Assembly: GCA_963809665.1 (NCBI GenBank)
Contig: CAWEKC010000003.1
Span: forward strand, 25,277-89,276
Direction of reading: 5' to 3'
DNA from: Candidatus Gottesmanbacteria bacterium
GTDB taxonomy: Bacteria > Patescibacteriota > Microgenomatia > UBA10105 > UBA927
DNA length: 64,000 bases
A program made the position numbers and the translations under genes. A model generated the notes under the pieces. That model was not told the DNA's origin, made no database searches, and worked only from the letters and a program-made list of their open reading frames with translations. Below are positions 13,143-47,858 of the stretch, piece after piece; the stretch's first letter is position 1, and each line of letters begins with the position of its first letter.

Positions 13143-13143
13143 T

Positions 13144-24098: not shown

Positions 24099-26453
24099 AT
24101 GCCACCTATATTGGAACGGCGCGCTATCTCGGATTCTCACGAAAACGTACACAGAAGTGTGCGGGTGTTTGCGGTAGCGCCTATATCGGCCGATAAATTG
24201 GCTTTTGAGCTGGAGGAGAGTTCCATTGATGACATTCCGCTTGTGGAAGTCATTTTGGGGAAAAAACCTTCTGTCGGACCAAGCGCAAACCGTCTTATTG
24301 CATTCGGGGGAGGAATTGAACCCGGCGAGTCTGTTGAGGAAGCGGCCATCCGGGAATTTGGGGAGGAAAGCACCATAACAGCCTTAAGTACCCAGGAAAC
24401 CTTGCAGGAGTGGAGAACGTCCCATGAGACCCTGAAGTCTTTTAACTACACCCCTCCGAAACGGCCGGAAAATCAGGTATATTTTTTAACCCTTCCGGTT
24501 GCAGGACAAGATGTCCAAAAATATGGTGTCCGGGGGATGCTTAAGGACAATATGGACGATGTAGTCGTGGTTACGCCGCATGAATTTCAATCCTTAATTG
24601 AGACAGGGGAAGTCAACGGCTTCAAAATTGTCGGCCACATGAGCAAACATAAAAATGATCACATCAGAATCAGACCGGAAGACGAAAACGTGAAAAATGA
24701 GGAGCTGGATCGCGTTGTGGCTGAGATCCATGCATTTGAACGGAAATTCCGGGAAAAGATACTGCAGGAGGTGAATAAAACCCGGCATTTCCGTAATTTG
24801 CCATACCTTCAAAATCTTTCTGAGTGCGGCCCGGAAGATTTACGCCCGGCATATATAGGAGCCCAGATGAAGATGGATTTATCATGCGAGCGGCAACAGG
24901 AACGGGCACTAGCCGCGTCTATACGCGAAGGACAGGATGCGGACGCATTACGGCACACCTTCTCGGTGAGTGCACAGGATCCGCTGAAAGCAGCGCCGTA
25001 CCTCTCACGGGAAAATTTTCTGAAACATCCTGAATTGTTGCTTTCACTCCCGACGGAAACGCTGGTTCACCAGGCGAATACTATAAAAAGAGCTGTGAAA
25101 CAAACGCTGGAATCCTCATCCTTTATGCAGAAAGGAAAGGATATATTTGCTGATTTACCCTGGAGCTTCGGACTTACGCAGGTCATACTTGCAGTCCGGG
25201 ACAGGTTGCAAACTTTACCGGCGGATTCACGGGCTGTCATTCTTTCGCGTCTCGATAATGATATGGCAGGAAATTTTGCGAGGTTAACCGGTGTAACGAA
25301 GGAAGCGGTCATCGAAGCGGTTACAGAAGGAGGAGATTTGTTATTTGATGAAGTTACGGCCAGCCTGAAGCGGAGATTCACCGTGTTTCAGGAACATCTT
25401 GCCGCGAACGAAATTGAGCATTCAGGGCTGTTCGGATACGTACTCCTAGCACTGCGTATTCATCCGGAATTGGTTGAACCTATGAATGATGCCCTCGAAG
25501 TGACGAAAAAAATGCAGTATGAAGCGATCCGTGAACTTGGACTTTTATTTCCGGCAGTCCGTGCGATCAAGGAATGGCACGCCTCTACCAATGACAGGCT
25601 GATTGATGTATTGTTTGCTGAATTTTTCGGTGTGCCGTTCGAGAAAGAAGAAGCGGAATTGGATGTAGATGGGAAGAAAGTGCCGCATACGATATATCAT
25701 CGCCGCGCGAATATAGAGATAATGGGAACATTTCCGCATGTTATTATCGATGACCGCGCAAAAAAAAGTAAAGTCGGATTACTTCGTAAATACTTGCTTG
25801 ATAACGGTCCGGTTCATGATAACCGTTCAACAAATATTGTCATTTCCGATGACAATTTCCGGAAAAAATTGAAGCTGGAAGACCGTTTGCAGTTTGCCGA
25901 ATTATTGAGGGATGAAATGGTGAAGTTTTTCCGTAAGAAATTAGGGAGTAGTTGGAGCGTGCGGATAGAATGGGATGCGGAAGACGAGCGATATAAAAAT
26001 GTCCGGAGATATGCAGCATTGCCCAAAAATGAGCGTTTTAACTATATCCGCGAACTTGTGCGTGCAGGAGGGAAGCGCCCGGGTTCACAAGGTTTCCGTT
26101 TTATACGCGATCAGTTTCGGCTGATAGTTGAGGGGCACAATACAAAGTTGGTGAGGGAAATTGACATATATCCCTTTGAGGATACGCATCATACGTTTAC
26201 CCCGGACCAATTGCGCAGTGCGGATCTATACTGGCAGAAATTACAAACATACAACAGTCTTTCAGATAAAGTTTTTGCATGGGGATGGCGTCAGAAACTG
26301 GGCGATCATACACTGGGGAATTACGAGGCAGCCCGGTATTATGCCAGAAGCACACGGTGGCAGACAGAGCCGTCATTATATGAACTGCTGTGGGCGTCAG
26401 CATATTATTATTTCTTAATTGAGCGGGTCCGCCTGCAGCAGGTTAAAAAATAA
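24099..26453 (+). CDS. Nudix hydrolase domain fused to an unrecognised 600-aa C-terminal domain
   Basis: Nudix box GGGIEPGESVEEAAIREFGEESTI (GX5EX7REUXEEXGU). No match is recognised for the C-terminal 600 aa. Confidence 0.6.
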   Translation: MPPILERRAISDSHENVHRSVRVFAVAPISADKLAFELEESSIDDIPLVEVILGKKPSVGPSANRLIAFGGGIEPGESVEEAAIREFGEESTITALSTQETLQEWRTSHETLKSFNYTPPKRPENQVYFLTLPVAGQDVQKYGVRGMLKDNMDDVVVVTPHEFQSLIETGEVNGFKIVGHMSKHKNDHIRIRPEDENVKNEELDRVVAEIHAFERKFREKILQEVNKTRHFRNLPYLQNLSECGPEDLRPAYIGAQMKMDLSCERQQERALAASIREGQDADALRHTFSVSAQDPLKAAPYLSRENFLKHPELLLSLPTETLVHQANTIKRAVKQTLESSSFMQKGKDIFADLPWSFGLTQVILAVRDRLQTLPADSRAVILSRLDNDMAGNFARLTGVTKEAVIEAVTEGGDLLFDEVTASLKRRFTVFQEHLAANEIEHSGLFGYVLLALRIHPELVEPMNDALEVTKKMQYEAIRELGLLFPAVRAIKEWHASTNDRLIDVLFAEFFGVPFEKEEAELDVDGKKVPHTIYHRRANIEIMGTFPHVIIDDRAKKSKVGLLRKYLLDNGPVHDNRSTNIVISDDNFRKKLKLEDRLQFAELLRDEMVKFFRKKLGSSWSVRIEWDAEDERYKNVRRYAALPKNERFNYIRELVRAGGKRPGSQGFRFIRDQFRLIVEGHNTKLVREIDIYPFEDTHHTFTPDQLRSADLYWQKLQTYNSLSDKVFAWGWRQKLGDHTLGNYEAARYYARSTRWQTEPSLYELLWASAYYYFLIERVRLQQVKK

Positions 26454-26478: not shown

Positions 26479-26862
26479 TTATGTAAGTTCAACTTTTGCA
26501 CCGGCTGCTTCGAGCTTTTTCTTTGCCTCTTGCGCGGTACTTTTATTGACTCCGGTTAAGACTTCTTTCGGTGCGCTCTCCACGAGCGTTTTTGCTTCCT
26601 GGAGCCCCAAGGTCGGCACGAGTTCGCGGACGGCTTTGATGGCGCCGATGCGGTTTGCTCCTGCTTCTTTAAGAACGACGTTGAATACCGTTTGTTCCTC
26701 TTTGGGTTCTCCGGCATCCGCGGCCGGAGCGGCTGCGGCAGCTGCGACGGGCGCGGCTGTGACACCAAATTTTTCTTCAAGGGCTTTTACCAGATCTGCG
26801 AGTTCTAACACCGTCATCTCACTTACTGATTTTAATATTTCATCTTTTGAAAGTTTTGCCAT
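26479..26862 (-). CDS. rplL: 50S ribosomal protein L7/L12
   Basis: [34 protein letters not shown]... followed by an Ala-rich hinge and ...[14 protein letters not shown]. Confidence 0.95.
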
Positions 26863-26902: not shown

Positions 26903-27424
26903 TTAATTCGTTTTCTTCTCCTTTATCGAATTCAGTGCCCAGACGAGCTTGTTCAAATTCCAGTTGAGTGCGTAGTGGAGTCCCTGAATCGGGGCATTGA
27001 GCTGACTGACTAATTTTGTCAACAGGACGGGGCGCGGCGGCAATGCAGCGAGTGTCATAACATCGGTTTGCGTCAGTACTTTATCGCCCAGGAGCCCGCC
27101 TTTAGCTTTACCAAACCCGGCGGTTTTGAAAAATTTAAGAAGGACGGTCAGTGGGGCAACTTCGTCCGCATAGGCAAACAGTGCCGCCGTAGAATGTGTG
27201 AGTTGGGCCTCGATGGATTTGGCTTTATCGCCCAAGGCCTTTGCAAAAAGTCGGTTCTTCGTAACTGTAAAATCCGCGTTAGCTTTCTTAAGCGTACGGC
27301 GGAGCTCTTCCAGTTGTTTATGCTTGAGGCCGCTGTAATCCGCGAGCACTATGGATTTTGCCTTGGCAACTTTTCCGGTTAATTCGGTAACCGCATCGAT
27401 TTTTTTCTGTGTAGCCATATGCAA
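26903..27424 (-). CDS. rplJ: 50S ribosomal protein L10
   Basis: Located upstream of rplL. Sequence KKIDAVTELTGKVAKAKSIVLADYSGLKHKQLEELRRTLK. Confidence 0.9.
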   Translation of the reverse strand: MHMATQKKIDAVTELTGKVAKAKSIVLADYSGLKHKQLEELRRTLKKANADFTVTKNRLFAKALGDKAKSIEAQLTHSTAALFAYADEVAPLTVLLKFFKTAGFGKAKGGLLGDKVLTQTDVMTLAALPPRPVLLTKLVSQLNAPIQGLHYALNWNLNKLVWALNSIKEKKTN

Positions 27425-27542
27425 TAAAAAAACACCACGAGGGTGCTTTATACGCGTTTCCCTCGGTAGGATTTATTCAGCTCTTCGAGAGAGCTAGACC
27501 TACGGTCTTTAGGTTAGAAAGATTATATCAATTGCCCGGGTG

Positions 27543-28406: not shown

Positions 28407-28835
28407 TTATCCTTCCACCTCAATACCCATGCTCTTTGCCGTTCCGATGACGACTTTCATAGCCGCTTCGACGCTGTCGGTATTCAAATCCGGTAATTTA
28501 TCGGTCGCGATTTTCTTCACCTGTTCGCGTGTCAGTTTACCTGCCGATTCATGGCCCGGTTTCCCGCCTGCCTTATCAAGGGCGAGAAGTTTTTTGATCA
28601 TCGCAGCCACAGGGGGAAGTTTGGTGATAAAGCTGAATGTCCGGTCTTCGTAGACGGTGATCACGGCAGGGATCGTTTCGCCTTTAAGTTTGGCGGTCCG
28701 TTCGTTATACGCTTTTACAAACTCCATGATGGGGAGTCCGTGCTGTCCCAATGCCGGCCCGACCGGAGGCGCGGCTGTCGCTGCACCCGCGGGCAAATTG
28801 AGTTTGATAATGGTTTTAACTTTTTTAACTGCCAT
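28407..28835 (-). CDS. rplK: 50S ribosomal protein L11
   Basis: [33 protein letters not shown]. The ORF track extends upstream to 29018, but the true start is the MAVKK codon at 28835. Confidence 0.9.
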
Positions 28836-28959: not shown

Positions 28960-29886
28960 CTAAATTTTTGGCAGGTTTGCAGCAAACGGGATGCCCCAAA
29001 CCGTCTTATTATCTGCACGGCCTCCGGTTAATAATGACAGGCATTTTCCGTTTTGTGTCACTATCGCGGCCCCCGACATACCGTCATCTGCCGCTCCTTT
29101 GAATTCATGAAGCCGGAGATCTCCGGAGAGGTGTGGTACGGTGGTTATTCCTTTGTATTTCAATTCGGTAAACGTCAGACTCCCATTAGTACCGGCGGGA
29201 AATCCTCCGCAATAAAAAATATCACCCTGTTTTGGTTCTGCCTGATCCTGAGCCAATTTTGTGTACTCGGGACGTGTGACATATTGTTTAAAGCCTACCG
29301 GCTTTTTGATTGTGATAGCGCGTATCGGGTGATATATGCCCGTATCGATATCCGATTCCGGGGACACATTCTCAATCCACCAGTCGGTGTCCGTTGGTTT
29401 AGGTCCGTTTGGTGCTCCGATTCGTGCATCAACCCGGAGTTGCTTCATTTGATCGCCGTACGGGAATGAAATGTCGACATTTTTCCAAAACATACCTTTT
29501 CCGAGATGCTCCGCCGTAAGTAGGACGAGATGCGTGTCTGTTTCAAAATAAACCTGGCCGGCACCGACACTCTGCGTTCCGTCTCCTGAATAACGTTCCA
29601 GCGACGTGATATTGATTTGTGCTAAGCCGGAAAGAAATGGGGGAGGAAGCAGGTCCGCAATTCTTTGCCCCTCAGGGGTATTTGCCTGCTGCGTTGCCTG
29701 AACTTCGATCGGTGAAAGGTGAGTCCGGCTGGCACATCCGGCAAGGGCAGCAGCTCCCAAGCCTGCGCCAACAAGCTTTATAAAAGCCCTGCGTGAAACA
29801 TTACCGCTTCCCGTATATACAATATTTGAGTCATTTTTTGATTCTGCCATAAGAATAAGCATAGAGGAAGCATCCAATGGAATCAA
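28960..29886 (-). CDS. TAT-signal lipoprotein with a trypsin-like (S1) serine-peptidase fold, inserted between nusG and rplK
   Basis: [21 protein letters not shown] is a twin-arginine motif plus lipobox. LLTAEHLG resembles the TAAHC His motif, and [10 protein letters not shown] resembles GDSGGP. Start uncertain (29850-29886). Confidence 0.45.
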
Positions 29887-29901
29887 GATCGGGGTGAGCT
29901 T

Positions 29902-30516
29902 TTACAGCTTGGCAACCTGCAGGAAGTCCAGTTCTACGGGAGTTTCACGGCCGAAGATAGAAACCAGCACTTTGATCTTCCCTTTTTCTTCATCAATTGT
30001 GTCAATCGTGCCCAAAAAGTCCGCAAACGGCCCGTCGACGATTTTGACGGCTTCACCCACCGAAAACGACGCCTTGTATTTCGGTGCTTCCATCTGCATG
30101 AATTTCAGAATCGTATCTACTTCTTTATCGGAAATCGGGGTAGGTTTGTTGCCGGCGCCGACAAACGCAGTGACGCCCTGTGTCGTCCGTACGGCCAGCC
30201 ATGACGTGTCATCCAGTACCATTTTGACCAGAATATAGCCGGGGAAAATTTTTTCCTTTTGTTCTTCTTTTTTACCGTGTTTAACGGTAACGATATTGCG
30301 GGTAGGGACGATAATTTCAAATATTTTATCCGCGAGCTTCATCGTGTCGATCCGCTGTTTCAGATTTGCGGCGACCTTGTTTTCGTGGCCGGAATATGTG
30401 TGTACGACATACCATTTGGCATTTGCAGGAGCCTGGGTTTTCGGGGTTTCCGTGATTGTTGCAGCGCTCGGAGCGGCTGGTTTTTTTTCTTCAGCTACTT
30501 TTTGAGTGTCGTTCAT
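29902..30516 (-). CDS. nusG: Transcription antitermination factor NusG
   Basis: WYVVHTYSGHENKV NGN domain and a C-terminal KOW (FSVGEAVKIVDGPFADFLGTI). Confidence 0.9.
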   Translation of the reverse strand: MNDTQKVAEEKKPAAPSAATITETPKTQAPANAKWYVVHTYSGHENKVAANLKQRIDTMKLADKIFEIIVPTRNIVTVKHGKKEEQKEKIFPGYILVKMVLDDTSWLAVRTTQGVTAFVGAGNKPTPISDKEVDTILKFMQMEAPKYKASFSVGEAVKIVDGPFADFLGTIDTIDEEKGKIKVLVSIFGRETPVELDFLQVAKL

Positions 30517-30519
30517 AGT

Positions 30520-30735
30520 TTATCGTTTAAATAATAGCGTTGTAATACGTAAAAATAACGAGTCCAGTCCGCCGATAAATGCTCCGACGAGTATCGAAAT
30601 GATGATGACGATAATCGTCAGCTTCACCGTTTCTTCCCGCGTGGGCCAGGTGACTTTTTTAAGTTCCGCAACCACTTCGCGCAGGAACCTTCCGGGCGCT
30701 ACATTCGGTATACTGGGCTTCTGTGCTGCGTCCAT
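30520..30735 (-). CDS. secE: Preprotein translocase subunit SecE
   Basis: 71 aa. FLREVVAELKKVTWPTREE followed by a single TM segment. Lies immediately upstream of nusG. Confidence 0.85.
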   Translation of the reverse strand: MDAAQKPSIPNVAPGRFLREVVAELKKVTWPTREETVKLTIIVIIISILVGAFIGGLDSLFLRITTLLFKR

Positions 30736-30767
30736 ATACGTATGATATCAGGTTTTTTCCTAAACAA

Positions 30768-30785
30768 AACCCCCTCCCAGGGGTT
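30768..30785 (-). terminator. Rho-independent terminator (AACCCC-loop-GGGGTT plus T-tract on the minus strand) after the 30831..32540 gene and before secE
   Basis: Hairpin seen directly; a T-rich run follows on the minus strand. Confidence 0.55.
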
Positions 30786-30830
30786 ATGGGTATGAGTATA
30801 TCAAAGGAGGTAAAAAAAGTAAAGATTAGC

Positions 30831-32540
30831 TTAGCAGCCGGCCGGCCACGTGGGGAGTGAAACACCCGGAGCCATAGTGGAATAAATAAGCTGCAGTTCC
30901 TGTATATACCCGTCAATTTTTGCTTTATTTGCGGACGAGAGCGTATTGTAACAGCCATTGCCGATCCAATACATTGCGACGAAATCCCGCAGCGTTTTCC
31001 CCGGACATGTAGCCGCATAGGAGGCAGGTAATTTGAGAAACCGGTCCAGCTGTTCGCTGAAATTTCCGGCGATACTTTGAATATTGACGCCGAAATCCTG
31101 GATCGTTCGGCCGGTTAACTGCCTGCCGCAGGTGTAATTGCTTGCACCGGATTCATGAAGCCAGATGGCGAGGGCAAATAACGGGTCAACACATGCCTTG
31201 ACGGCCCTTGCGATGACATCGTTTTTACACATTTTCCACGCATTATCCGTGCCGGCGGCACATCCGCCGTACACTCTGTCGGCGTATGACTGACCCCCAT
31301 CCGGATTTAATCCCTTGACGGTTTGTTCCGAGACACTTGTATCACAGTTCCACCCGCCGGTTGTCGTTGAACCCACCCAATTTTTGTTACAGGTGTCGCT
31401 CATTCCTGCGATTGTCTGATAGTCTGCCGGCATGAGCGTGCAGTTCGTATAATCTCCGGCGGCCTCGACGCGTGCGGCAAATGCATTTGCGTTGGAAGCC
31501 TGTATTGTTGTCTTGGTTATGGTTTGATCCCATTGTTGTTGATCGCCGTTAGCATTAAGGGCGGATTTATATGTCGGATCAATTTCATCCTGCCGGTACA
31601 TGCTGTTGACGAATCCGCCTGCAGCGCAGAGCTTCTGTTTTTGTTCGTCAGATGCGTAACTTAAGGATGCTAAATCCGATGATGTCGCGCATCCGGCAGT
31701 CAGCGCATCGGCATGGCCGGCAAACGGATTTTGAGCGGTGCCTACGATCTGGGCAGTGGCGGTGAGCGTTCCGCTTGCGCTGGACGTTCCACCACTTCCG
31801 GTTAAAAGTTTAATCATGGCAGCTGTAAACTTATAGACAAGACCAGCAAATGCCGTTGAGGCACTTGATCCATAGCTGTTATTAAATTGGGAGGGTTTGG
31901 TTTCGAGCGGTTTACTTTCACCGGTTGGTATAGAATCGCACGGGAGTGCTGCATCCTGTTTAATAGTGATAGGAGGCAGAGTGTAGTCCTGCGATTCCTG
32001 TACATATCCGGTCGTGAATGATGAGAGCCTGCGGGACCCTTCGCCCTGTGCACGGAGCCACGGCTGATCGGCAGTGACTATAGTCGTTTCACTTACAGCG
32101 TCCCTGTATTGACCGGTTTTCGGATCTAAAACGCAGATTCGACTGGTCATGGAAGCTGATTTTGACGATTCGTCATGCTGTTCGTTTTCCTGGAGCTGTG
32201 CAGGATTTAATTCAAAATCGCTTGCTGATTGGATTTGATTTGCGAATGAATCGAGTTTAGGATTTCCGTTGTAATACGTTTCGTTGTGCGGTTGTAATAT
32301 TCCAAGCCAGTTCAGTGTATAGGATCGGTTGAGAAGAGCGTCGATAGTATTTGCGACATCAGCAATTTCCTGCTGTAACGGTATGACTGTATTTACCCCA
32401 TCGCCGGTTGTCGCGCACGGTTTGGTGGGGTCAGTGCAATCGCGGACGGTAAACAGGGAATCAACGGCACGCGCGTGGGATATTCCGGCAAGACAGAAGT
32501 ATATAGCAAAAACAATAACAAAATTCCGGATATTCCGCAT
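30831..32540 (-). CDS. Secreted 569-aa protein. The C-terminal region has a possible lytic-transglycosylase/lysozyme-like motif (AIWLHESGASNY).
   Basis: Signal peptide MRNIRNFVIVFAIYFCLAGISHA. ES motif weakly SLT-like. Confidence 0.4.
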   Translation of the reverse strand: MRNIRNFVIVFAIYFCLAGISHARAVDSLFTVRDCTDPTKPCATTGDGVNTVIPLQQEIADVANTIDALLNRSYTLNWLGILQPHNETYYNGNPKLDSFANQIQSASDFELNPAQLQENEQHDESSKSASMTSRICVLDPKTGQYRDAVSETTIVTADQPWLRAQGEGSRRLSSFTTGYVQESQDYTLPPITIKQDAALPCDSIPTGESKPLETKPSQFNNSYGSSASTAFAGLVYKFTAAMIKLLTGSGGTSSASGTLTATAQIVGTAQNPFAGHADALTAGCATSSDLASLSYASDEQKQKLCAAGGFVNSMYRQDEIDPTYKSALNANGDQQQWDQTITKTTIQASNANAFAARVEAAGDYTNCTLMPADYQTIAGMSDTCNKNWVGSTTTGGWNCDTSVSEQTVKGLNPDGGQSYADRVYGGCAAGTDNAWKMCKNDVIARAVKACVDPLFALAIWLHESGASNYTCGRQLTGRTIQDFGVNIQSIAGNFSEQLDRFLKLPASYAATCPGKTLRDFVAMYWIGNGCYNTLSSANKAKIDGYIQELQLIYSTMAPGVSLPTWPAGC

Positions 32541-32600
32541 GTAAATTCATCATAGCAAATTGACAAGCATCTTGCAGGAGCGATACAATCCTAAGTACCG

Positions 32601-33476
32601 ATGAAAAAACAGACCGTCCGCAAAGCAGTCATCCCAGCCGCAGGATTCGGGACCAGATTCCTGCCCCAGACCAAGGCCATGCCCAAGGAAATGCTTCCGA
32701 TCGTTGATAAGCCCGTCATTCAGTATGTGGTTGAAGAACTGGTTGCCTCGGGTATTACCGATATCGTTATTGTCACAGGATGGAATAAACGCGCCATTGA
32801 AGACCATTTTGATTATCCGAACGAGCTAATTCAGATGTTAAAGGAACAAGGGAAACATGAGCTTATCGAGTCGGTAAAAAAAACCGCGGAACTTGCTAAT
32901 TTCATCTATATCCGGCAAAAAGGCCCATACGGCAACGGGACACCGGTTCTTTGCGCTAAATCCGTCATTGGCGATGAACCGTTTGTGACTATATGGGGTG
33001 ACGAATTTATTTACGCACACCCGCCGCGGGCCAAACAATGCATCGACGTATTTGAAAAATACGGAGATCCGGTTATTTCGGCAATTCGCGTGCCTAAGAA
33101 TGACGTTTCACGCTACGGGATAGTTGAGGTTACCGAAATTGAAAAAAACGTCGGTCAGATTAAACGACTGCTTGAAAAACCGAGTAAAGAAGAAGCGCCT
33201 GGTAACTTGGCGGCACACGGTTGTTATGTGTTAACACCGGATATTTTTCCGATTCTTGAACATTTAGCTCCGGGGAAAGCAGGGGAAATTTGGCTTACCG
33301 ATGCCATTAAAGAATTAATGAAGTCCCGTCCTGTCTATTCATGTGAGGTGACGGATGCGAAATATTACGATACGGGAAACAAGCTGGAATACCTTAAAAC
33401 CGTCGTCGAGTTTGCGCTCCAGCACAAAGATTTAAACGGTGATTTCCGGCAGTACCTCAAGAGTTTGAAGCTCTAA
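32601..33476 (+). CDS. galU: UTP--glucose-1-phosphate uridylyltransferase
   Basis: VRKAVIPAAGFGTRFLPQTKAMPKEMLPIVDKPVIQYVVEE is the canonical GalU N-terminus. Confidence 0.85.
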   Translation: MKKQTVRKAVIPAAGFGTRFLPQTKAMPKEMLPIVDKPVIQYVVEELVASGITDIVIVTGWNKRAIEDHFDYPNELIQMLKEQGKHELIESVKKTAELANFIYIRQKGPYGNGTPVLCAKSVIGDEPFVTIWGDEFIYAHPPRAKQCIDVFEKYGDPVISAIRVPKNDVSRYGIVEVTEIEKNVGQIKRLLEKPSKEEAPGNLAAHGCYVLTPDIFPILEHLAPGKAGEIWLTDAIKELMKSRPVYSCEVTDAKYYDTGNKLEYLKTVVEFALQHKDLNGDFRQYLKSLKL

Positions 33477-33478
33477 TA

Positions 33479-34183
33479 TTACTCCGACGGTGGAATTCCG
33501 TAGATAACCACTTCCGTTCCGGGATTACCCGGATTTGCCAGCGTACTCCATGCTCTGGGATTGGTAACTACCGGAGTGGTCCAGTCATAAAGTTTTGCCG
33601 CATCGTCAGTCTGCATATTAATGCATCCGTGACTCATCGGATGGCCGAAGTTGTGGTGCCAGTACGTGCCGTGGAAACTGTACCCGAGATATTTGGCAAC
33701 CTGATTGTTATAAAAGAATTGCACGTAGGGGACATTCGGCAGATAATAATAGGTTCCGTCTGACTGATTGCCGCCGGACATAAGTTGGCTGCGGACTTTA
33801 GCCCAGATGCGGAATGTGCCTGTCGGTGTCCGGCCCCATTTGCCGGTAGAGACGGTGAAATCGAATATCTTGGTATTTCCCTGATACGCGTAGACTTTTT
33901 GATTGGTAAGGTCTACCTCGATTCTTTTATCATTGGGTGAAGCAACTCCGAGGACACGGCTGGTTTGCTTCAGATCCGCCAGTTGCACGGGAATTACTTC
34001 CGATCCGTGAAACACTGCGTAATGCTCGTCCGCCGGCTGACCGAGTATTTCTCCGGCAATAAGTTTGGAAAGGGAAACCGGATCCGCAAGCGGTTCAGTT
34101 TTAGCGGATGTATGTTTTGTCTGAAGTAAGAAAAAAGAAGCGAGAAATAGCACAAAGAAGCTGACAAAGAATTTCAATTTCAT
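33479..34183 (-). CDS. Secreted L,D-transpeptidase (YkuD) domain protein
   Basis: Signal peptide. Catalytic HG...SHGCINM motif. Confidence 0.75.
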   Translation of the reverse strand: MKLKFFVSFFVLFLASFFLLQTKHTSAKTEPLADPVSLSKLIAGEILGQPADEHYAVFHGSEVIPVQLADLKQTSRVLGVASPNDKRIEVDLTNQKVYAYQGNTKIFDFTVSTGKWGRTPTGTFRIWAKVRSQLMSGGNQSDGTYYYLPNVPYVQFFYNNQVAKYLGYSFHGTYWHHNFGHPMSHGCINMQTDDAAKLYDWTTPVVTNPRAWSTLANPGNPGTEVVIYGIPPSE

Positions 34184-34185
34184 AC

Positions 34186-34923
34186 TCAGGGTTTTGTAAA
34201 TATAAATGTATCCGATTCGATTTCTTTGCCCGATATCCGAATGGTAAAAAAGTATCGGTAGGTTCCGGCAGGAACATTCGGAATTGTAAGTTGGTGAGTC
34301 CGGTTGTTTTGGCTTTGCAACGGGGCGGTAAAATTATTAAGTGCCGGAATGTGCACCGTGAGAGCGGCATTCATATTGGTTGTAGCGGTGACGAGTACAG
34401 TACTATTATCAGTAACAGTGTATATTGCATAGCCGGTGAGAATCTGTTTGGCCTGTGACTCTACAGTTTGCCGCTGTTGTATCCCCCTGATGGTTATTGC
34501 GAGTCCTCCGGATAAGAGAAGAAGCAGCATGCTGCCCAAGAGAATACTGCTGACATTGGGTGCGGGAATATGCCAGAGTTTGTGATATTCAATTTTTGTT
34601 TGTTGAGCACGCTTGAATGCGGCAAGTTGTCCCGTAGGGAAAAAATACCCGTGATCATTCGGGCAGTCAAAGATGAATACGTCGTCAGGGACATTGTCTC
34701 CTGAACTCCGTGTGAGCAGCTTCCCGCATACCGGACAGTAATATGTTGCGTGCAGTGAGATTGCCCGGGGTGCCGCAGTGGTATTTGTTTTAATATAATT
34801 AGCGGAAAATGAATCCATCCAGTATCCATGACACACGGGACAGGTAGAATAGGAGACCGTCAAGCCGCTTTCACCCTGCGCGGTATGGTTGGTTAAATCT
34901 GCATCAGCCGCGGGACACTTCAT
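34186..34923 (-). CDS. Zinc-ribbon (double CPxCG) membrane protein with an extracytoplasmic beta domain
   Basis: CPVCHGYW and CPVCGKLL motifs, one TM segment. Confidence 0.4.
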   Translation of the reverse strand: MKCPAADADLTNHTAQGESGLTVSYSTCPVCHGYWMDSFSANYIKTNTTAAPRAISLHATYYCPVCGKLLTRSSGDNVPDDVFIFDCPNDHGYFFPTGQLAAFKRAQQTKIEYHKLWHIPAPNVSSILLGSMLLLLLSGGLAITIRGIQQRQTVESQAKQILTGYAIYTVTDNSTVLVTATTNMNAALTVHIPALNNFTAPLQSQNNRTHQLTIPNVPAGTYRYFFTIRISGKEIESDTFIFTKP

Positions 34924-34942
34924 AGATCCAGTATAACGTATT

Positions 34943-35653
34943 TTAGTTCCCCCACGTAAAGAATTCGTTTACCGTCATGTGGTTGATAATATAAAACGCG
35001 AGGCTTCTGACAACGGTACCGATTGGTCCCATAAATTGTGAATTGTGCGCGCGGAGCGCCCTGAGTTTGGTAAGGGTATCCGCCCAGTTCAACTGAAGTT
35101 CCACATCGGGTTTGATTGGTTTGATACCGGGTTTTTTCGCCATCTTTGCTGCAGATTCCGGCACGCGGTAGGAAGGGGAGACGGTGATGTAGAGTAACCG
35201 CGTGGGTCTCCGGACGACCGATCTGACATATTCACTTAACGCGATATGGTCGGGGTGGCCGTACACGCCGTGCGGCTCGAGGGTTACAACGTACGTCGGA
35301 CGGAAATCCCCAATATTTGTGCGGATTGTCTGTTTTATTTTCTCGCCGATATATTCCAATCCGCCGTCAGGATATGTATATGTATGAAAATTTTTTACAC
35401 CAAGGATGGAAAGTGCGCGTCCGAATTCTTTTTCGCGAATACGGCCGAGATTATCCGTTGGTTTCAGGCCGAATCGTAGGGTGCTGTTTTCCCCTCTTGT
35501 CATTGTGATAACACGGATCGGAATTTTTGAAGTATATAAACGGTGGATGAAACCGCCGCAGAAAATCGTTTCGTCGTCCGGATGGGGCATTACAACAAGA
35601 ATACGGCTGGCGGCGTCAATACCGAGCGTGGAAAGCGAACCTGTCGTAATCAT
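34943..35653 (-). CDS. PIG-L/LmbE family N-acetylglucosaminyl deacetylase
   Basis: ILVVMPHPDDETIFCGG and HPDHIA motifs. Confidence 0.75.
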   Translation of the reverse strand: MITTGSLSTLGIDAASRILVVMPHPDDETIFCGGFIHRLYTSKIPIRVITMTRGENSTLRFGLKPTDNLGRIREKEFGRALSILGVKNFHTYTYPDGGLEYIGEKIKQTIRTNIGDFRPTYVVTLEPHGVYGHPDHIALSEYVRSVVRRPTRLLYITVSPSYRVPESAAKMAKKPGIKPIKPDVELQLNWADTLTKLRALRAHNSQFMGPIGTVVRSLAFYIINHMTVNEFFTWGN

Positions 35654-35663
35654 GAGAGATTAC

Positions 35664-36857
35664 TCAGGCCACCGGAGGCGTAGGCGGCGGTTGGATAAAG
35701 GGCGTGGGGGGCGTTTTTTTCTTGCGTAACAGCAGGAAGGCTGCGGCGATTGCAGCAAGGACTCCGATTACCCACCATACGAGATTTCCGAGAGGATTTT
35801 TAGAAGGCTCAAGGGCAAGCGTCGGGGTGACACTTGGCGTGGGTGTCAAGGAGACGATTGCGACGACTTCGGGTGTCGGCGTAATATTTGTATAAGCGAT
35901 AACCCGCTGGTAGTACGTTGCAGGGGTGGTTGTAGAGGGATTGATGACGATTACCCGTTTACAGTCGTTGGAAAAACCGGAAAAAACATTATTATTGTCG
36001 CGCACGCGGCATAATGCCCCCAGCGATCCGATTGTTGAATAGGTATGAGTTGTCGAAATAGATCCCGGGCTGCCGGCGTTTTTGTACACCGTATCAATCG
36101 TTCCGTCGCCGAAGGTAAATTCCGCGGCGTTGATATACCCGTCGGGGTCGATACCGGAACAGGTAAATGTTACGGAGAGCGGGGCGCCGGTGCCGGTCGT
36201 CGTATTGCTTGTGAGCGTGACACACGTGGGTGTTGTATTATTTCCTCCACCAGACTGACCGGGTGTCGGAGTCGGCGTTGGGGTTCCTGCACCGACCGTC
36301 GGCGTGGGGGTGGGTGCGGTGCCGTTACTATACGTCAGGGCAACCGAATTTGTTTGTGATGAGCAGGACGAGAGAACATTTTGGGCAGGGGAGATAGTGT
36401 AGATGTGAGTATTTGCGCAGTCGATTGAAACGGTACTGCTCCCTGAAGATTTTTTTGCTTTGAAAACAACCGTTGCATAGTTGCCGTTGCCGCTCGTGCC
36501 GATGGGTGACGATGTGTATGCATGGAGTTCAAGCACGTTATTTGCGGGGTCAGGTGCAGAACTGAAAAACGGGAAAAAATTTCCGTTTGATGCTGATACA
36601 AAATCCAGATCATTGGCCGCATACCGGATATAGACATCGCTGGTTTGTACCGAACCGGAGTCCGCATTGACACTTAATGTCAGTGTCACCGTGTTATTTT
36701 GTACTACGACGGCGCTCGTCGGGCTGAACAGCAAACTTGGAGCCGCCTGCGCTTGTGCCGCAGGAAAAGCTAATGCAAGAAAACCGACTGTGACTGCAGT
36801 GAGGAATCGGAGCAGTTTAGTTTTCATCGTAGCGCGTCTCCAGTGTTTGAAAAACAA
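35664..36857 (-). CDS. Cell-surface protein with a PKD-like domain and a C-terminal TM anchor
   Basis: Signal peptide; FTCSGIDPDGYINAAEFTFGDGT (PKD); C-terminal LVWWVIGVLAAIAAAFLLLRKKK. Confidence 0.5.
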   Translation of the reverse strand: MFFKHWRRATMKTKLLRFLTAVTVGFLALAFPAAQAQAAPSLLFSPTSAVVVQNNTVTLTLSVNADSGSVQTSDVYIRYAANDLDFVSASNGNFFPFFSSAPDPANNVLELHAYTSSPIGTSGNGNYATVVFKAKKSSGSSTVSIDCANTHIYTISPAQNVLSSCSSQTNSVALTYSNGTAPTPTPTVGAGTPTPTPTPGQSGGGNNTTPTCVTLTSNTTTGTGAPLSVTFTCSGIDPDGYINAAEFTFGDGTIDTVYKNAGSPGSISTTHTYSTIGSLGALCRVRDNNNVFSGFSNDCKRVIVINPSTTTPATYYQRVIAYTNITPTPEVVAIVSLTPTPSVTPTLALEPSKNPLGNLVWWVIGVLAAIAAAFLLLRKKKTPPTPFIQPPPTPPVA

Positions 36858-38307
36858 GGCTTAGATCCAACGAATCGACTTTGCCGCTGTAATTAACATC
36901 TGCTGTTAAGAGGTCCTGCGGTGTTTGTTGTGAACTGGGTTTGTTGAAAAGGTCCGTGATGAGCTTGATATCGTCGGTATTCACTTTTCCGTCATGATTC
37001 AGGTCGCCGGGTGGCAGCGGCCTGCCGGTAAAGTCGAACGTATCTGATTGCGTTGCTATGTATTCCGTGTCATTACACGGTTCTGTCTGTCCTGATGGTC
37101 GGCAGAAAACAATCTGTGAATGTTTCTCGCCTTTAATAAGTACACGGTACTCCGTAGGCGCGGGAAGGGGATTTGTAACTGTCGCGGTTGCCGTATATAC
37201 ACCGTTTCCGAGCGGGTTTAGCACTAATGGTTTATCAAGCTGAAGTACTGTACCGTTCTTGAGTTTAAGCTTCACTGTTATTGTTGCTCCCTGGGCCTCT
37301 GCTCCGTTTACTCCCATGAGTTTTACCCTAAATGTCATTATTCTCGGCAGAAGTATCGGGGTGGGAGTCGGTGTCGGTGTCAGATATTGTGAAACAGTAG
37401 GATAGGGAGGCCGTGTCGGTGTCGGCGTCATATAGTATGACGGAGTAGGATATCTGGTCGGTGACGGAGAGATCGGGATGCAGCGGTAATTCTGACAAAT
37501 ACCGGGTTGAGCAAGTACAGACAGGACTTCGGACAGCGGATAACTAGTACCGGCAGGTGAGGTCGGGCAGGAGAAAGTGGTAAAAGTGCAGCTCGATCCG
37601 TTTGGTGAACAACTCACTCCTGAAGGCGTCGGATAATAGGACGGAGTGGGATACCGTGTCGGTGTCGGCGTGAGCCATGTTTCACAACGCCCGCTGATAC
37701 AGACTCCACCGCGTGTTGTGCATTTATCGATACAATTCGGTGTACCCGGCGGGCATGCCGGCGCGCACGTATCGGTACACGCGGAACCCTCTGTTTTTCC
37801 CGAACAAACATTCGTACCGGGTGTGGGTGTAATCCATGTTTCACATTTGCCGCTTATACAGAATCCGCTGCGTGTCGTACATTGATCCGTACACACTTTT
37901 ACATCCGGCGGGCATGCTCTCGCACAGGTATCGGTACACGCAGAACCCTCTGTTTTTCCCGAACAGACATTCGTACCGGGCGTGGGTGTAGCCATACTGC
38001 AGTTGGGGATAAAAGGTTTACCGTTTGATATCCAGGCGTTGTATCCGGTTAGCTCTTCTTCCGTCAGGGGGACAAGTACAGCAGCACATCCTTGGGCGTT
38101 CGGGTTCCCTTTGCAGCCATCAGGCCAGTTAAGCTTACCGTCAAACTCGGTAACGCGGTTCCAGCAGATTTCAGCAGTTGTTGTCGCAGCGCGTTTTCGA
38201 AGTTCAATCCGCTGCGTCGCGACTGCCCATATGAAGATAGGAAGTCCTACAATCAAAAAGACTGCAATAAGTAATTTGATCCATGGAATCCGTTTGGTTC
38301 CGATCAT
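36817..38307 (-). CDS. Membrane-anchored surface protein with two duplicated 8-Cys modules, Pro/Thr/Tyr linkers and a C-terminal type-I dockerin
   Basis: N-terminal TM. Duplicated module TPTPGTNVCSGKTEGSACTDTCA(R/P)ACPP...C(I)SG(K/R)CETW. Dockerin repeats DLNHDGKVNTDDIKLITDLF and DVNYSGKVDSLDLSLVFQTL. Confidence 0.65.
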   Translation of the reverse strand: MIGTKRIPWIKLLIAVFLIVGLPIFIWAVATQRIELRKRAATTTAEICWNRVTEFDGKLNWPDGCKGNPNAQGCAAVLVPLTEEELTGYNAWISNGKPFIPNCSMATPTPGTNVCSGKTEGSACTDTCARACPPDVKVCTDQCTTRSGFCISGKCETWITPTPGTNVCSGKTEGSACTDTCAPACPPGTPNCIDKCTTRGGVCISGRCETWLTPTPTRYPTPSYYPTPSGVSCSPNGSSCTFTTFSCPTSPAGTSYPLSEVLSVLAQPGICQNYRCIPISPSPTRYPTPSYYMTPTPTRPPYPTVSQYLTPTPTPTPILLPRIMTFRVKLMGVNGAEAQGATITVKLKLKNGTVLQLDKPLVLNPLGNGVYTATATVTNPLPAPTEYRVLIKGEKHSQIVFCRPSGQTEPCNDTEYIATQSDTFDFTGRPLPPGDLNHDGKVNTDDIKLITDLFNKPSSQQTPQDLLTADVNYSGKVDSLDLSLVFQTLETRYDEN

Positions 38308-38406
38308 ACGGGTATATGACTTCTTGTTCTTATCGTACCCAACAGGAAAAATAATTGCAAGTACCTATCTACCATTATATATACGTTCACAGATGCGTTG
38401 TGTGGG

Positions 38407-38477
38407 CAGGGCCACGTGGAGTCGAACCACGATCAGAGGTTTTGGAGACCCCCATTCTACCATTGAACTATGGCCCT
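38407..38477 (-). tRNA. trnW: tRNA-Trp (anticodon CCA)
   Basis: Cloverleaf folded by hand: acceptor AGGGCCA/TGGCCCT, D-arm GTTC/GAAT, anticodon loop CTCCAAA, T-arm CGTGG-TTCGACT-CCACG. Confidence 0.8.
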
Positions 38478-38493
38478 AGATGGATTAATTATA

Positions 38494-39003
38494 TCACGGG
38501 AGTAGCCGGAGGGTTTTGACTGCAGCGTTAAACGAAGCTCCGTAACCGGCGATGTAGCTGTCTAAGCCTTTTACCGGATGTGTGAAAATGACGATATCAA
38601 TAGGCGTTCCGTCCCGGGCTGAACTGTCGTGATAGAGTTTTGCCGATATGGTCGCACTACCGGAGGCCGGAATAGAGAGGGTTTCGATTTTATCCACAGG
38701 AAGAGCGGGTCTGGGGATATCCTTTTGGCATGTGACGGTGATGGACTGAGTTTTATCCGATGTGTTATTGAAGATTGCGCTGCCTGATGCATTTTCCAGA
38801 ACGGTAAACGTTGACGGATACGACAGCGAAAATCCGCAATAAGTATCCATATATGTTTGCGTGATAATTTCAGGTTCGGGCGAGGGAGTTTGTACGGGGG
38901 AAGGAGAAGGGGGTTTAGTCATTCGGCTACCCACATTCACGCCGATAAGCACTGCGGCACATACGGCAAGAATACTCACCAGAAGAAGGGTGTTCCGATG
39001 CAT
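38494..39003 (-). CDS. Secreted hypothetical protein
   Basis: Signal/TM MHRNTLLLVSILAVCAAVLIGV. Confidence 0.4.
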   Translation of the reverse strand: MHRNTLLLVSILAVCAAVLIGVNVGSRMTKPPSPSPVQTPSPEPEIITQTYMDTYCGFSLSYPSTFTVLENASGSAIFNNTSDKTQSITVTCQKDIPRPALPVDKIETLSIPASGSATISAKLYHDSSARDGTPIDIVIFTHPVKGLDSYIAGYGASFNAAVKTLRLLP

Positions 39004-39009
39004 ACGGTG

Positions 39010-39183
39010 TTAGTCTAATTTACTAGTTTCTTTATGTAGCGTGTGTTTTTTACAATACCGGCAATACTTAGTAAGCGCGAGTTTTTCCGGAGTATTTACT
39101 TTATTGCGCACGGAAATATAGTTCTGATGTTTACAGACAGAGCAAACGAGCGCGAGTAATTGCCGTTGGTCCTTTTTTGCCAT
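39010..39183 (-). CDS. rpmG: 50S ribosomal protein L33 (C4 zinc type)
   Basis: MAKKDQRQLLALVCSVCKHQNYISVRNKVNTPEKLALTKYCRYCKKHTLHKE. The ORF track extends upstream to 39390, which is spurious. Confidence 0.8.
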   Translation of the reverse strand: MAKKDQRQLLALVCSVCKHQNYISVRNKVNTPEKLALTKYCRYCKKHTLHKETSKLD

Positions 39184-39211: not shown

Positions 39212-40105
39212 TTACTCAAGCAGATGGTTTGTGCTAATGGCCTCCGCAACTTTCCGGGCAAACAAGATCCGTCCGGAGTCGGAATAATGGATGTGGTCGC
39301 CGCCGTTAATATAGGTGAGATTTCCTTCTCCGGCACCCGTGAGGCTTGCGTGGTACGCGTCGGCCAAAGGAAGGTGCGCACCGGCGGCAAATTTTACCGT
39401 ACTGTCGAGGTATTGCTTGATCACCGAAGTACGCGTAATTTTATCCTCCCTGCTGAATGCGATGCCGGGGGCTCCGTCACCGAAGATCATACTGTTAGGT
39501 GCGATTGTCGATGCGATAATAATTTTGGCGCCGGGAATATTACTGCGGATAGTATCAACGGCGCGGGCCATCGCTATCCAATGACGGTCAAGCCCGCCCT
39601 CACCGGGAAACGGATTATAGGCGAAGGATTCGATAACGACGATATCGGGACGGGTAGAAGCCAGCGGCGGGATTTGGTTTCCCAGATATGAATACCCATT
39701 GGTTATCCTTTCTATCCCGAAATCTATATTGGTGCCACCGTCGCCGTAATTCAACAGGGTAAATTTGGTAGCCGGGTACATATTTTTCAAAAGGGCATGC
39801 AATGCAGGAATTCCGGGGCCGAGTGTATCAATCATCGAATCACCCAGGAGTGCGATCGTATATGATTGCTTTTTTGCCGTGCCGGCCGTAACCGTAGGCG
39901 AACGCTGGGGTGTGGGTTGAAGTGTGGGATTGGCTGTTGGTGTTGGCGTGATACCCGAAGTTTCACCCAGCACATCAACGATTTGCCCAAAAGAAACCCC
40001 GGGTTTCGGTGGAGGTGATGTTGCGGTGATCACGTCGTCCGGAATCGGGGAAATCACCGTGCCTGCGGCATATATGGTGAATGTGAAGAGTGCCAGCAGG
40101 TTCAT
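39212..40105 (-). CDS. Secreted SGNH/GDSL hydrolase
   Basis: Signal peptide, Pro-rich linker, ALLGDSMID (GDS block) and GGDHIHYSDSG (DxxH block). Confidence 0.65.
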   Translation of the reverse strand: MNLLALFTFTIYAAGTVISPIPDDVITATSPPPKPGVSFGQIVDVLGETSGITPTPTANPTLQPTPQRSPTVTAGTAKKQSYTIALLGDSMIDTLGPGIPALHALLKNMYPATKFTLLNYGDGGTNIDFGIERITNGYSYLGNQIPPLASTRPDIVVIESFAYNPFPGEGGLDRHWIAMARAVDTIRSNIPGAKIIIASTIAPNSMIFGDGAPGIAFSREDKITRTSVIKQYLDSTVKFAAGAHLPLADAYHASLTGAGEGNLTYINGGDHIHYSDSGRILFARKVAEAISTNHLLE

Positions 40106-40149
40106 AGATCTATGATAACGGATTTATAGAGGATTTATCAGAGGTGCAA

Positions 40150-40536
40150 TTACTCCCGCATGATGAGGTGTTCTTCGAACCGCTTCGCCTCAAAAAATTT
40201 TACGCAGAAATCGCGGGTCATTTGCGGGTCATACCACGCGCAGGAAAAAATATTCAGGTAGACGCTTTTTTTATATTCTGAAAAATGTGCCGTAACGGAA
40301 CTGGTTTCTATAAGTTGTACAAGTGAGTATCCGCTTGTCATTGGGTTTTCGTGACCGAAATGGGGGATGAACGGTTCTCCATACCGTTTCATTTTTATGA
40401 CGTTGTCGCAGAGTTCGATGACAAATTTTTTAATTTCCGCGCCTGAGGATATTTTTTCCAAACTGCAGTTATACAAATTCAGCGTGAGTTCCTGTCCGAA
40501 ATATTGGTCGTATTTTTTATCCGGGGCATTTAACAT
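40150..40536 (-). CDS. speH: Pyruvoyl-dependent S-adenosylmethionine decarboxylase-like proenzyme
   Basis: FGHENPMTSGYSLVQLIETSSVTAHFSE carries an ES self-cleavage motif similar to SpeH. Confidence 0.5.
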   Translation of the reverse strand: MLNAPDKKYDQYFGQELTLNLYNCSLEKISSGAEIKKFVIELCDNVIKMKRYGEPFIPHFGHENPMTSGYSLVQLIETSSVTAHFSEYKKSVYLNIFSCAWYDPQMTRDFCVKFFEAKRFEEHLIMRE

Positions 40537-40682: not shown

Positions 40683-43293
<2,611 letters not shown>

Positions 43294-43294
<1 letters not shown>

Positions 43295-43365
43295 GCCTGG
43301 AGGGAGAATCGAACTCCCAGTCAACTCCTTACCATGGAGTCGTTTTACCACTAAACTATCCAGGC
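43294..43365 (-). tRNA. trnT: tRNA-Thr (anticodon GGT)
   Basis: Acceptor GCCTGGA/TCCAGGC, anticodon loop ATGGTAA, T-arm GGGAG-TTCGATT-CTCCC. Confidence 0.75.
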
Positions 43366-47855: not shown

Positions 47856-47858
47856 CAT

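Follow-up and report, generated by a model that had tools for sequence, protein, structure and literature searches.

In Escherichia coli, secE-nusG, rplKA and rplJL are established units of transcription and autoregulation. In Mycobacterium tuberculosis (Mtb), further mycolate genes, those of the mmaA cluster, separate rplA from rplJ. The classical tuf/rpmG-secE-nusG-rplKAJL-rpoBC locus of E. coli and Bacillus has been described together with its rplK and rplJ promoters, and genes that separate rplKA from rplJL have been reported in Bradyrhizobium diazoefficiens and Actinomyces israelii (PMC12993453). In Mtb, hadABC, which responds to (p)ppGpp, shares a seven-gene operon with four translation genes (PMC5541348), and in Streptococcus pneumoniae pbp2a forms a putative operon with rpmG-secE-nusG, in which the core unit keeps its own promoter (PMC5036317). 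For genomes of the Candidate Phyla Radiation (CPR), our literature search found no prior description of this cluster. The present study concerns the cluster in a 64,000-nt stretch of a Candidatus Gottesmanbacteria genome (assembly GCA_963809665.1, contig CAWEKC010000003.1, positions 25,277 to 89,276 of the forward strand; hereafter the window, with positions counted from its first letter), where nine unrelated genes lie between the cluster members and break their contiguity. Our data suggest that this split is probably an old layout which the Gottesmanbacteria inherited vertically.

The cluster members were identified by Pfam, ARAGORN and Rfam as a complete set in canonical order on a single strand:

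39010..39183, minus strand: rpmG (L33), Pfam Ribosomal_L33 at E=2e-18
38403..38478, minus strand: tRNA-Trp(CCA), called by ARAGORN, Rfam tRNA at 63.8 bits
30520..30735, minus strand: secE, Pfam SecE at E=1.5e-21
29902..30516, minus strand: nusG, Pfam NusG and KOW at E=5e-30
28407..28835, minus strand: rplK (L11), Pfam L11_N and L11
27543..28403, minus strand: rplA (L1), 286 aa, Pfam Ribosomal_L1
26903..27424, minus strand: rplJ (L10), Pfam Ribosomal_L10
26479..26862, minus strand: rplL (L7/L12), the final gene of the cluster, Pfam Ribosomal_L12 and L12_N

Read along the minus strand, rpmG is followed by the gene of a 169-aa membrane protein, tRNA-Trp, 7,667 bp of other sequence, secE-nusG, the gene of a 308-aa lipoprotein with a twin-arginine translocation (TAT) signal, and rplK-rplA-rplJ-rplL. 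Three gaps are large, namely 531 bp with one gene from rpmG to tRNA-Trp, 7,667 bp with seven genes from tRNA-Trp to secE and 1,066 bp with one gene from nusG to rplK, and they sum to about 9.3 kb. The other spacers are short (secE-nusG and rplK-rplA, 3 bp each; rplA-rplJ, 118 bp; rplJ-rplL, 40 bp). A first-pass annotation of this DNA had reported a cluster split by about 9 kb of surface and cell-wall genes; the profile and tRNA calls bear out the split, its size and coordinates, and the underlying tRNA-Trp call is correct. Compared with the classical locus, order and orientation from rpmG to rplL are the same. However, the units are not contiguous in the window, another 4.1 kb separates tRNA-Thr from rpmG, tuf is absent between the tRNAs and rpmG, and a convergent 784-aa NUDIX gene, not rpoBC, follows rplL.

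For comparison, GTDB species representatives were scanned by NusG alignment, which yielded 80 loci, and 10 loci from exact-protein look-ups brought the sample to 90. The loci come from Gottesman-, Levy-, Davies-, Woese-, Curtiss-, Ames-, Beckwith- and Blackburnbacteria and others; window proteins were located in each of them by tblastn and tRNAs by ARAGORN. NusG homologues were 79–100% identical, and the few with a named source are assigned to Candidatus Gottesmanbacteria or Patescibacteria. Gap statistics were obtained from the 80 Microgenomates loci with a threshold of more than 500 bp, and contrasts were evaluated by Fisher tests. Gaps above this threshold were distributed as follows:

secE-nusG: 0 of 77 loci, largest gap at most 415 bp
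rplJ-rplL: 0 of 39 loci, largest gap at most 308 bp
rplK-rplA: 5 of 72 loci
tRNA-Trp-secE: 19 of 21 loci, median 6.6 kb
nusG-rplK: 26 of 76 loci, up to 8.5 kb
rplA-rplJ: 23 of 42 loci, up to 8.5 kb

These data demonstrate that the stretching is junction-specific: tRNA-Trp|secE, nusG|rplK and rplA|rplJ open, and secE-nusG, rplK-rplA and rplJ-rplL stay tight (within-pair against between-pair gaps, Fisher p of about 1e-8 to 1e-9). The window itself has a closed rplA|rplJ junction (118 bp), and about 25 more loci had no co-oriented tRNA-Trp within 9–10 kb upstream of secE. The three tight pairs coincide with the classical transcription units secE-nusG, rplKA and rplJL. The compact array Thr-Tyr-Thr-rpmG-Trp-secE-nusG-rplKAJL was kept in two loci, one of Woesebacteria (L040) and one of Woykebacteria (L056), and is stretched elsewhere; compact Thr-Tyr-Thr-rpmG-Trp arrays were found in these two as well as in L033 and L020. 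In compact relatives, tRNA-Thr(GGT) lies 25–94 bp from rpmG, and the span Thr-Tyr-Thr-rpmG is shorter than 0.5 kb. We take the compact array of L040 and L056 as the ancestral state.

Based on this evidence, we consider it probable that the split is a vertically inherited Gottesmanbacteria layout, in which the array was pulled apart over a long time at the boundaries of expression units and received native occupants. The ancestral array would have read tRNA-Thr/Tyr/Thr, rpmG, tRNA-Trp, secE, nusG, rplK, rplA, rplJ and rplL, and would have opened slowly, only at the boundaries of autonomous expression units. The spacers tRNA-Trp|secE, nusG|rplK and rplA|rplJ would tolerate other genes, and Thr|rpmG and rpmG|Trp would do so less readily. 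The welded pairs may be kept by co-transcription, translational coupling and autoregulation, as are secE-nusG, rplKA and rplJL of E. coli, and an insertion inside a pair would break its translational coupling or autoregulation. Since each pair would be an autonomous expression unit, genes lying between units would be harmless and could be gained, lost or inverted. The occupants are ordinary native chromosomal genes, many of which make or decorate the cell envelope, and the spacers would act as selectively near-neutral landing sites that mirror the envelope-rich flexible gene pool of small genomes. The envelope bias may thus merely reflect the flexible gene pool of small, presumably surface-attached cells.

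The nine interrupting genes of the window are as follows:

38494..39003, minus strand: sec169, a membrane-anchored 169-aa protein, between rpmG and tRNA-Trp
36817..38307, minus strand: dock496, a secreted 496-aa protein with a C-terminal type I dockerin (Pfam Dockerin_1, E=3e-10) and two Cys-rich modules
35664..36857, minus strand: pkd397, a 397-aa surface protein with a signal peptide, Pfam Cohesin and PKD, and a C-terminal transmembrane (TM) anchor
34943..35653, minus strand: a 236-aa PIG-L family deacetylase (BshB/MshB-like), Pfam PIG-L at E=5e-32, NCBIfam matches under the equivalog cutoffs
34186..34923, minus strand: znf245, with three zinc-ribbon motifs of the CxxC type, a single TM helix and a Zn_ribbon_TFIIB match below threshold
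33479..34183, minus strand: a 234-aa YkuD-type L,D-transpeptidase (ykuD) with a signal peptide, Pfam YkuD at E=2.5e-23
32601..33476, plus strand: galU (UTP-glucose-1-phosphate uridylyltransferase), TIGR01099 at 327.4 bits against a cutoff of 326.8, divergent from the cluster
30831..32540, minus strand: sec569, a secreted Cys-rich 569-aa protein, between galU and secE
28960..29886, minus strand: tat308, a 308-aa TAT-signal lipoprotein at nusG|rplK, with an SRRAFIK...LAGC motif and a lipobox in its sequence

Several of these occupants are fixed at different depths of the lineage. Of the 72 Microgenomates loci whose upstream sequence was long enough, 47 carry an opposite-strand galU within 3 kb upstream of secE, and in 20 the distance is at most 500 bp. 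The galU/secE neighbourhood therefore spans much of the Microgenomates, where galU is an ancient neighbour of secE. Homologues of sec569 (550–690 aa) lie between galU and secE-nusG in 16 of 20 Gottesmanbacteria loci; the family comprises 27 homologues, and the few with a named source are Gottesmanbacteria. The ykuD gene adjoins galU in most Gottesmanbacteria loci. Homologues of sec169 lie between rpmG and tRNA-Trp in L001, L008, L012 and L086. The tat308 family, with only five homologues in 5.8 billion proteins, occupies nusG|rplK in all four readable loci, namely the window, L008 (where it is inverted), L089 and L090, at 53–100% identity. In the proposed scheme, galU would be fixed across the Microgenomates, sec569 and sec169 across the Gottesmanbacteria and tat308 in a subclade, and others would turn over by local deletion, replacement and inversion.

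This turnover can be followed among close relatives with NusG identities of 90–96% (L081, L083, L086, L087 and L088), whose general order is (dockerin)(cohesin/PKD)...ykuD-galU(-)-~590aa-secE-nusG. A dockerin gene followed by a cohesin/PKD gene stands upstream of ykuD-galU in L004, L081, L083, L087 and L088, and in L002, L003 and L006 the cohesin/PKD gene is preceded by a family other than dock496 (c29). Homologues of znf245 occur in L001, L004, L081, L086 and L087. The closest collinear relative, L086, reads speD-GDSL-rpmG-169aa-Trp-znf245-ykuD-galU-571aa-secE-nusG, that is, without dock496-pkd397-PIG-L. In L081 and L083 the dockerin/cohesin pair is present, PIG-L is absent and the other upstream neighbours differ, and in L001 PIG-L stands at the same position as in the window and a polysaccharide deacetylase replaces the dockerin pair. 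By parsimony over the contents of L086, L081, L083 and L001, the window arrangement would be near-ancestral for the subclade, with losses elsewhere; the absence of dock496-pkd397-PIG-L from L086 is best read as a deletion, because the pair recurs upstream of ykuD-galU in many Gottesmanbacteria. No Gottesmanbacteria locus had an empty Trp-secE site, and the dock496-pkd397-PIG-L segment was missing only in L086. In L083, Wzy_C and other genes replace speD-GDSL-rpmG-169aa-tRNA-Trp; a speD fragment beside purB (954-1040 of that locus, 59% identity over 23% of the protein) is probably a scar of the rearrangement.

The most variable spacer is nusG|rplK. Among 17 Gottesmanbacteria loci, 15 were occupied there, by 39 open reading frames (ORFs) of 30 families according to rough ORF calling and clustering, and the commonest occupant was an opposite-strand paralogue of pkd397 (cohesin/PKD; 8 of 17 loci). 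In contrast, the interval from galU to nusG held 10 families in 20 loci, with sec569 in 16. The split had been regarded as a rare insertion, with the reservation that the same ancestral order in relatives would speak against it. The relatives do largely carry the same arrangement, and with a Trp-secE gap above 500 bp in 19 of 21 loci the split is the norm in the lineage. We therefore read it as an old lineage trait, and not as a recent insertion or a mobile island, because the relatives inherited the same layout. The accompanying idea of a hotspot for accessory envelope genes is partly right, because junction content differs between relatives and surface and wall proteins are enriched, but the occupants are native and many are conserved.

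Signals that could make the core units autonomous were sought by consensus-match scans and Rfam. Promoter-like sites were found directly upstream of rpmG, galU, secE and rplK, and the core units appear self-sufficient because such sites precede secE and rplK. The elements with coordinates are as follows:

39219-39191: promoter-like site of rpmG
32560-32589: promoter-like site of galU, the best of the region
28954-28926: promoter-like site of rplK (TTGCCA-17-TATACT with TG) in the spacer after the tat308 gene, a consensus match only
27418..27531, minus strand: L10-leader-like element filling the rplA-rplJ spacer, a full-length match to Rfam RF00557 at 31.9 bits against a gathering threshold of 44 (E=0.1)
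26452-26475: bidirectional terminator-like hairpin between rplL and the convergent NUDIX gene

A bona fide L10 leader (61.9 bits) stands at the same place in the Woesebacteria locus L040. Sub-threshold Rfam matches to the rimP leader (about 31 bits against a gathering threshold of 47) coincide with the hairpin after rplL, both in the window (26422-26523, plus strand) and in L083 (13415-13505, plus strand); the terminator hairpin, rather than a genuine rimP leader, is the most likely source of both.

Several observations weigh against an inherited layout with near-neutral spacers. The promoter scan returned 15 sites where 18 were expected from shuffled sequence, and the combined promoter/terminator scan showed no enrichment over shuffles. 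The L10-leader match of the window is below threshold, and none was found in L081, L083 or L086 at E up to 1; the leader was therefore rejected as proof of an autonomous rplJL unit and counts as weak evidence. The same-strand genes of the block are tightly spaced (dock496 and pkd397 overlap by 41 nt, and the following spacers are 10, 19 and 2 bp), nusG and tat308 are 15–39 bp apart, and such spacing could mean that functional operons read into the cluster. By a crude hydropathy rule applied to greedy ORF calls, 39% of junction ORFs carry an N-terminal signal or anchor, compared with 23% of the ORFs that these loci have outside the cluster (odds ratio 2.1, p=1.6e-4; the counts are non-independent because the loci are related), an excess which a strictly neutral model does not predict. 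Further, homology between the window and both L086 and L001 breaks off precisely at the tRNA-Trp 3' end, which is the classic position of integrase insertion and is equally expected from fast decay of intergenic homology.

The tight spacing and the envelope excess lead to functional recruitment as another explanation, according to which envelope genes would be kept in this supercluster to co-regulate wall and surface synthesis with growth, for example by read-through from strong promoters (rpmG, tRNA or secE-nusG) or by stringent control. The long fixation of galU, ykuD and sec569 near secE-nusG and the placement of tat308 directly after nusG fit such a role, as do the co-orientation of six of the seven Trp-secE block genes with the cluster at spacers of -41 to 19 bp and the precedents of Mtb hadABC (PMC5541348) and S. 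pneumoniae pbp2a (PMC5036317). In the Pfam census of the relatives, nusG|rplK and rplA|rplJ held Big_13, Dockerin_1, Big_6, beta-lactamase/S11 and LPG synthase, and the Trp-secE interval held galU, YkuD, PAP2, class A penicillin-binding proteins, sugar epimerases/dehydratases and cohesin/dockerin; Ig-like, dockerin and cell-wall enzyme families predominate among junction ORFs. However, the best-conserved neighbour, galU, runs on the opposite strand; only 28 of 57 genes (49%) in nusG|rplK gaps are co-oriented with the cluster, and the tat308 homologue of L008 is inverted. Co-transcription with the cluster is therefore not required, and a co-transcription reading of the junction genes was rejected. 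The content is also heterogeneous: the 17 loci held 30 families, and housekeeping genes (for example NDK, hexokinase, RNase HII and ABC transporters) occur in the junctions as well. Promoter-like sites, moreover, precede secE and rplK. Because of the divergent galU, the random orientation at nusG|rplK and the heterogeneous content, we regard functional recruitment as unlikely; it is compatible with the inherited layout and does not exclude it.

The first-pass annotation had favoured a recent event, that is, an island or integrative element at tRNA-Trp and a second insertion at nusG|rplK that brought in foreign envelope genes, and had suggested a search for deviating composition and for direct repeats around the tRNA. 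It is true that the block abuts the 3' end of the tRNA where homology with L086 and L001 stops, that dock496-pkd397-PIG-L (3.45 kb) is absent from the otherwise collinear L086 and that accessory-like surface proteins make up the content. However, the 31-nt 3' part of tRNA-Trp, searched with up to 3 mismatches through the whole 64-kb window, matched only itself, and no direct or inverted repeat across 28.0–40.5 kb flanks the block. Pfam and NCBIfam detected no integrase, recombinase or transposase domain in the nine interrupting genes, and in the relatives, whose 114 and 133 junction ORFs hit 60 and 94 Pfam families, the 25 commonest families included no integrase or transposase. The composition is native: the block genes have a GC content of 0.46–0.52 and a third-position GC content (GC3) of 0.47–0.54, and their Karlin-type codon-usage distance to the other window genes is 0.26–0.36 per gene and 0.16 pooled, against a window mean of 0.29 and a pooled value of 0.19 for the core cluster genes, which makes the block indistinguishable from the rest. 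A cohesin/PKD pair upstream of ykuD-galU in L002-L004, L006, L081, L083, L087 and L088 (with the c29 partner in L002, L003 and L006), PIG-L at the same position in L001 and a tat308 family resident at nusG|rplK in diverged relatives (53–70% identity) point the same way. Both the tRNA-island reading, which lacks a 3'-end copy, flanking repeats and an integrase, and the foreign-DNA reading, in which GC, GC3 and codon distance would deviate per gene or pooled, were accordingly rejected. All three suggested checks, the comparison with related genomes included, thus spoke against a rare insertion. These data largely refute a recent island, and we consider it very unlikely.

An artefact of assembly or binning, in which a chimeric contig of a metagenome-assembled genome (MAG) joins unrelated fragments inside the cluster, was also weighed, since the window does come from a MAG and the exact dock496 protein is on record in no other assembly. 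An independent Logan contig (ERR12037368, 8.7 kb) reads sec569-secE-nusG-tat308-rplKAJL-NUDIX with an identical NusG and matching gene lengths, and therefore the part from sec569 to NUDIX is not an assembly artefact. With more than 20 independent MAGs from different studies sharing the backbone and with uniform composition across the region, an artefact is extremely improbable.

Beyond the vertically inherited layout, the inter-unit spacers of Gottesmanbacteria and other Microgenomates might be preferred and actively used exchange sites for surface-display genes, above all nusG|rplK and the tRNA-Trp-proximal end. This notion covers cohesin/PKD anchors, dockerin proteins, Ig-like proteins and TAT lipoprotein peptidases, and we consider it unlikely. 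If true, keeping variable host-attachment or envelope genes beside the best-expressed and most stably placed genes of a tiny genome would tie surface remodelling to growth, like mycobacterial hadABC.

Concerning the identities of the interrupting genes, the dockerin, PKD, PIG-L, L,D-transpeptidase and opposite-strand galU labels were confirmed by Pfam and TIGR01099. The start of pkd397 overlaps dock496, and the pair resembles a minimal surface-display module made of one cohesin and one dockerin gene, here in a CPR bacterium. Within dock496, a tandem 159-nt duplication (37661-37990, minus strand, 77–91% identical) yields the two Cys-rich module copies, TPTPGTNVCSGKTEGSACTDTCA...C; this was the only genuine repeat in the 28.0–40.5 kb interval. 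For sec169, no Pfam match above threshold was obtained, with a weak PsbP-like match at E=0.01. The description of znf245 as a zinc-ribbon membrane protein agrees with its CxxC motifs and single TM helix, but the Zn_ribbon match itself is only sub-threshold. A 25-nt stretch at 34919-34943, which covers the znf245 start codon and upstream sequence, is 84% identical to 40101-40125, its counterpart at the GDSL hydrolase gene (repeat D9), and the znf245 copy is also kept in L086; it may be a common translation-initiation or promoter motif, or chance.

The label of a TAT-lipoprotein trypsin-like peptidase held for tat308 in its first part, given the TAT motif and lipobox, and the Pfam TAT_signal profile exceeded its cutoff in the homologue P0151. 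The peptidase part is less secure: Trypsin_2 matches in three family members were all below cutoff (E=0.017, 0.0019 and 0.19), and a match to SplA was weak (E=0.49). The family has invariant residues, namely H (in TAEH), several D and S (in GMSG). An AlphaFold model based on an alignment of only five sequences reached a mean confidence (pLDDT) of 43.5, too poor for use. Overall, the residues and profile matches tentatively suggest a chymotrypsin-fold serine peptidase. In the case of sec569, described initially as SLT-like, searches against Pfam and NCBIfam at E up to 10 with the whole protein, the C-terminal domain alone and four homologues gave no match; nor did a profile search against PDB, and Foldseek found no structural match in PDB at E up to 0.001 for the AlphaFold model (pLDDT 72.5). 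An SLT or lytic transglycosylase identity was therefore dropped as a supported label.

In rplA, a Lys/Glu-rich N-terminal extension of about 60–85 aa precedes the usual start of ribosomal protein L1 (27543-28403, minus strand). Since L1 measures 264–299 aa in close relatives, the extension seems to be a lineage trait. The genes adjoining the cluster are as follows:

24099..26453, plus strand: 784-aa NUDIX-domain protein with a single NUDIX near the N-terminus, convergent on rplL
39212..40105, minus strand: GDSL hydrolase (Pfam)
40150..40536, minus strand: speD (Pfam)
40683..42029, plus strand: purB (Pfam)
42026..43294, plus strand: purA (Pfam)
43293..43365, minus strand: tRNA-Thr(GGT) (ARAGORN)
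47771..47856, plus strand: tRNA-Tyr (ARAGORN)
48468..48539, minus strand: tRNA-Thr(TGT) (ARAGORN)

The NUDIX gene occupies the usual place of rpoB after rplL, with homologues at the same position in L086 and L087, and rpoBC is unlinked to rplL in the window. On the other side, the GDSL hydrolase, speD and the opposite-strand purB-purA (4.1 kb) separate tRNA-Thr(GGT) from rpmG. The inverted tRNA-Tyr lies 4.4 kb beyond tRNA-Thr(GGT), followed by tRNA-Thr(TGT), and these two tRNAs would complete the ancestral Thr-Tyr-Thr-rpmG-Trp array, having been displaced from it and, in part, inverted. Immediately beside tRNA-Thr(GGT) lies the gene of a 201-aa protein (43351-43956, minus strand) that gave weak HTH_28/HTH_23 matches. 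At 0.39, its GC is lower than anywhere else in the region (about 0.48), and the gene could be what is left of a mobile or homing element.

The sole compositional outlier of the window is a collagen-repeat gene region at 2–13 kb. Two huge ORFs of 2,054 and 1,227 aa (1960-13142, plus strand) encode collagen triple-helix (G-X-Y) repeats (Pfam Collagen, E=1e-136 and 2e-79) and are possibly one gene broken at 8.1–9.5 kb; the repeats account for the 58–65% GC and strong AT skew of this region, against about 48% GC elsewhere. A 1,438-aa protein directly after them (13120-17436, plus strand), with Peptidase_M23 and a weak MG2 match (alpha-2-macroglobulin-like), could belong to a large surface or lytic machinery.

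The concept of chromosomal hotspots, in which accessory genes gather between core genes, reportedly goes back to Oliveira et al. 2017. Like such hotspots and tRNA-linked islands, the intervals of the window are bounded by persistent core genes, one of them near a tRNA, and their content varies between relatives. However, integrase, att repeat and compositional deviation are absent from the window, and turnover is slow compared with islands and hotspots because much of the content is conserved at the family or class level. A split "universal" cluster beside a tRNA resembles an island, yet it appears to be the inherited state of a whole CPR lineage. The roughly 90 Microgenomates loci can be seen as a natural experiment that shows which linkages selection protects in very small genomes. 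The galU/secE neighbourhood, the orphan sec569 upstream of secE and the dockerin and cohesin pair may be relevant to surface building in these presumed episymbionts, although the findings are not surprising enough to alter current views.

Among the described systems, the Mtb order rpmG2-hadABC-secE-nusG-rplKA ... rplJL is broken at the same junctions as in the window's lineage. The lodged genes differ: fatty-acid dehydratases in Mtb, as opposed to galU, YkuD, PIG-L, dockerin/cohesin and orphan secreted proteins in the window, where galU is moreover on the opposite strand. In S. pneumoniae, as in the window, a peptidoglycan enzyme gene is physically linked to rpmG-secE-nusG, but there a single gene lies upstream of rpmG and the cluster itself is unbroken. 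The break in B. diazoefficiens and A. israelii affects the same junction that is open in 23 of 42 Microgenomates loci; these are isolated cases in conserved phyla, whereas the Microgenomates open all three junctions commonly and class-wide. Breaks at unit boundaries (PMC12993453) and lodged envelope genes (PMC5541348, PMC5036317) are thus already known in other phyla, and the CPR adds a lineage-level example.

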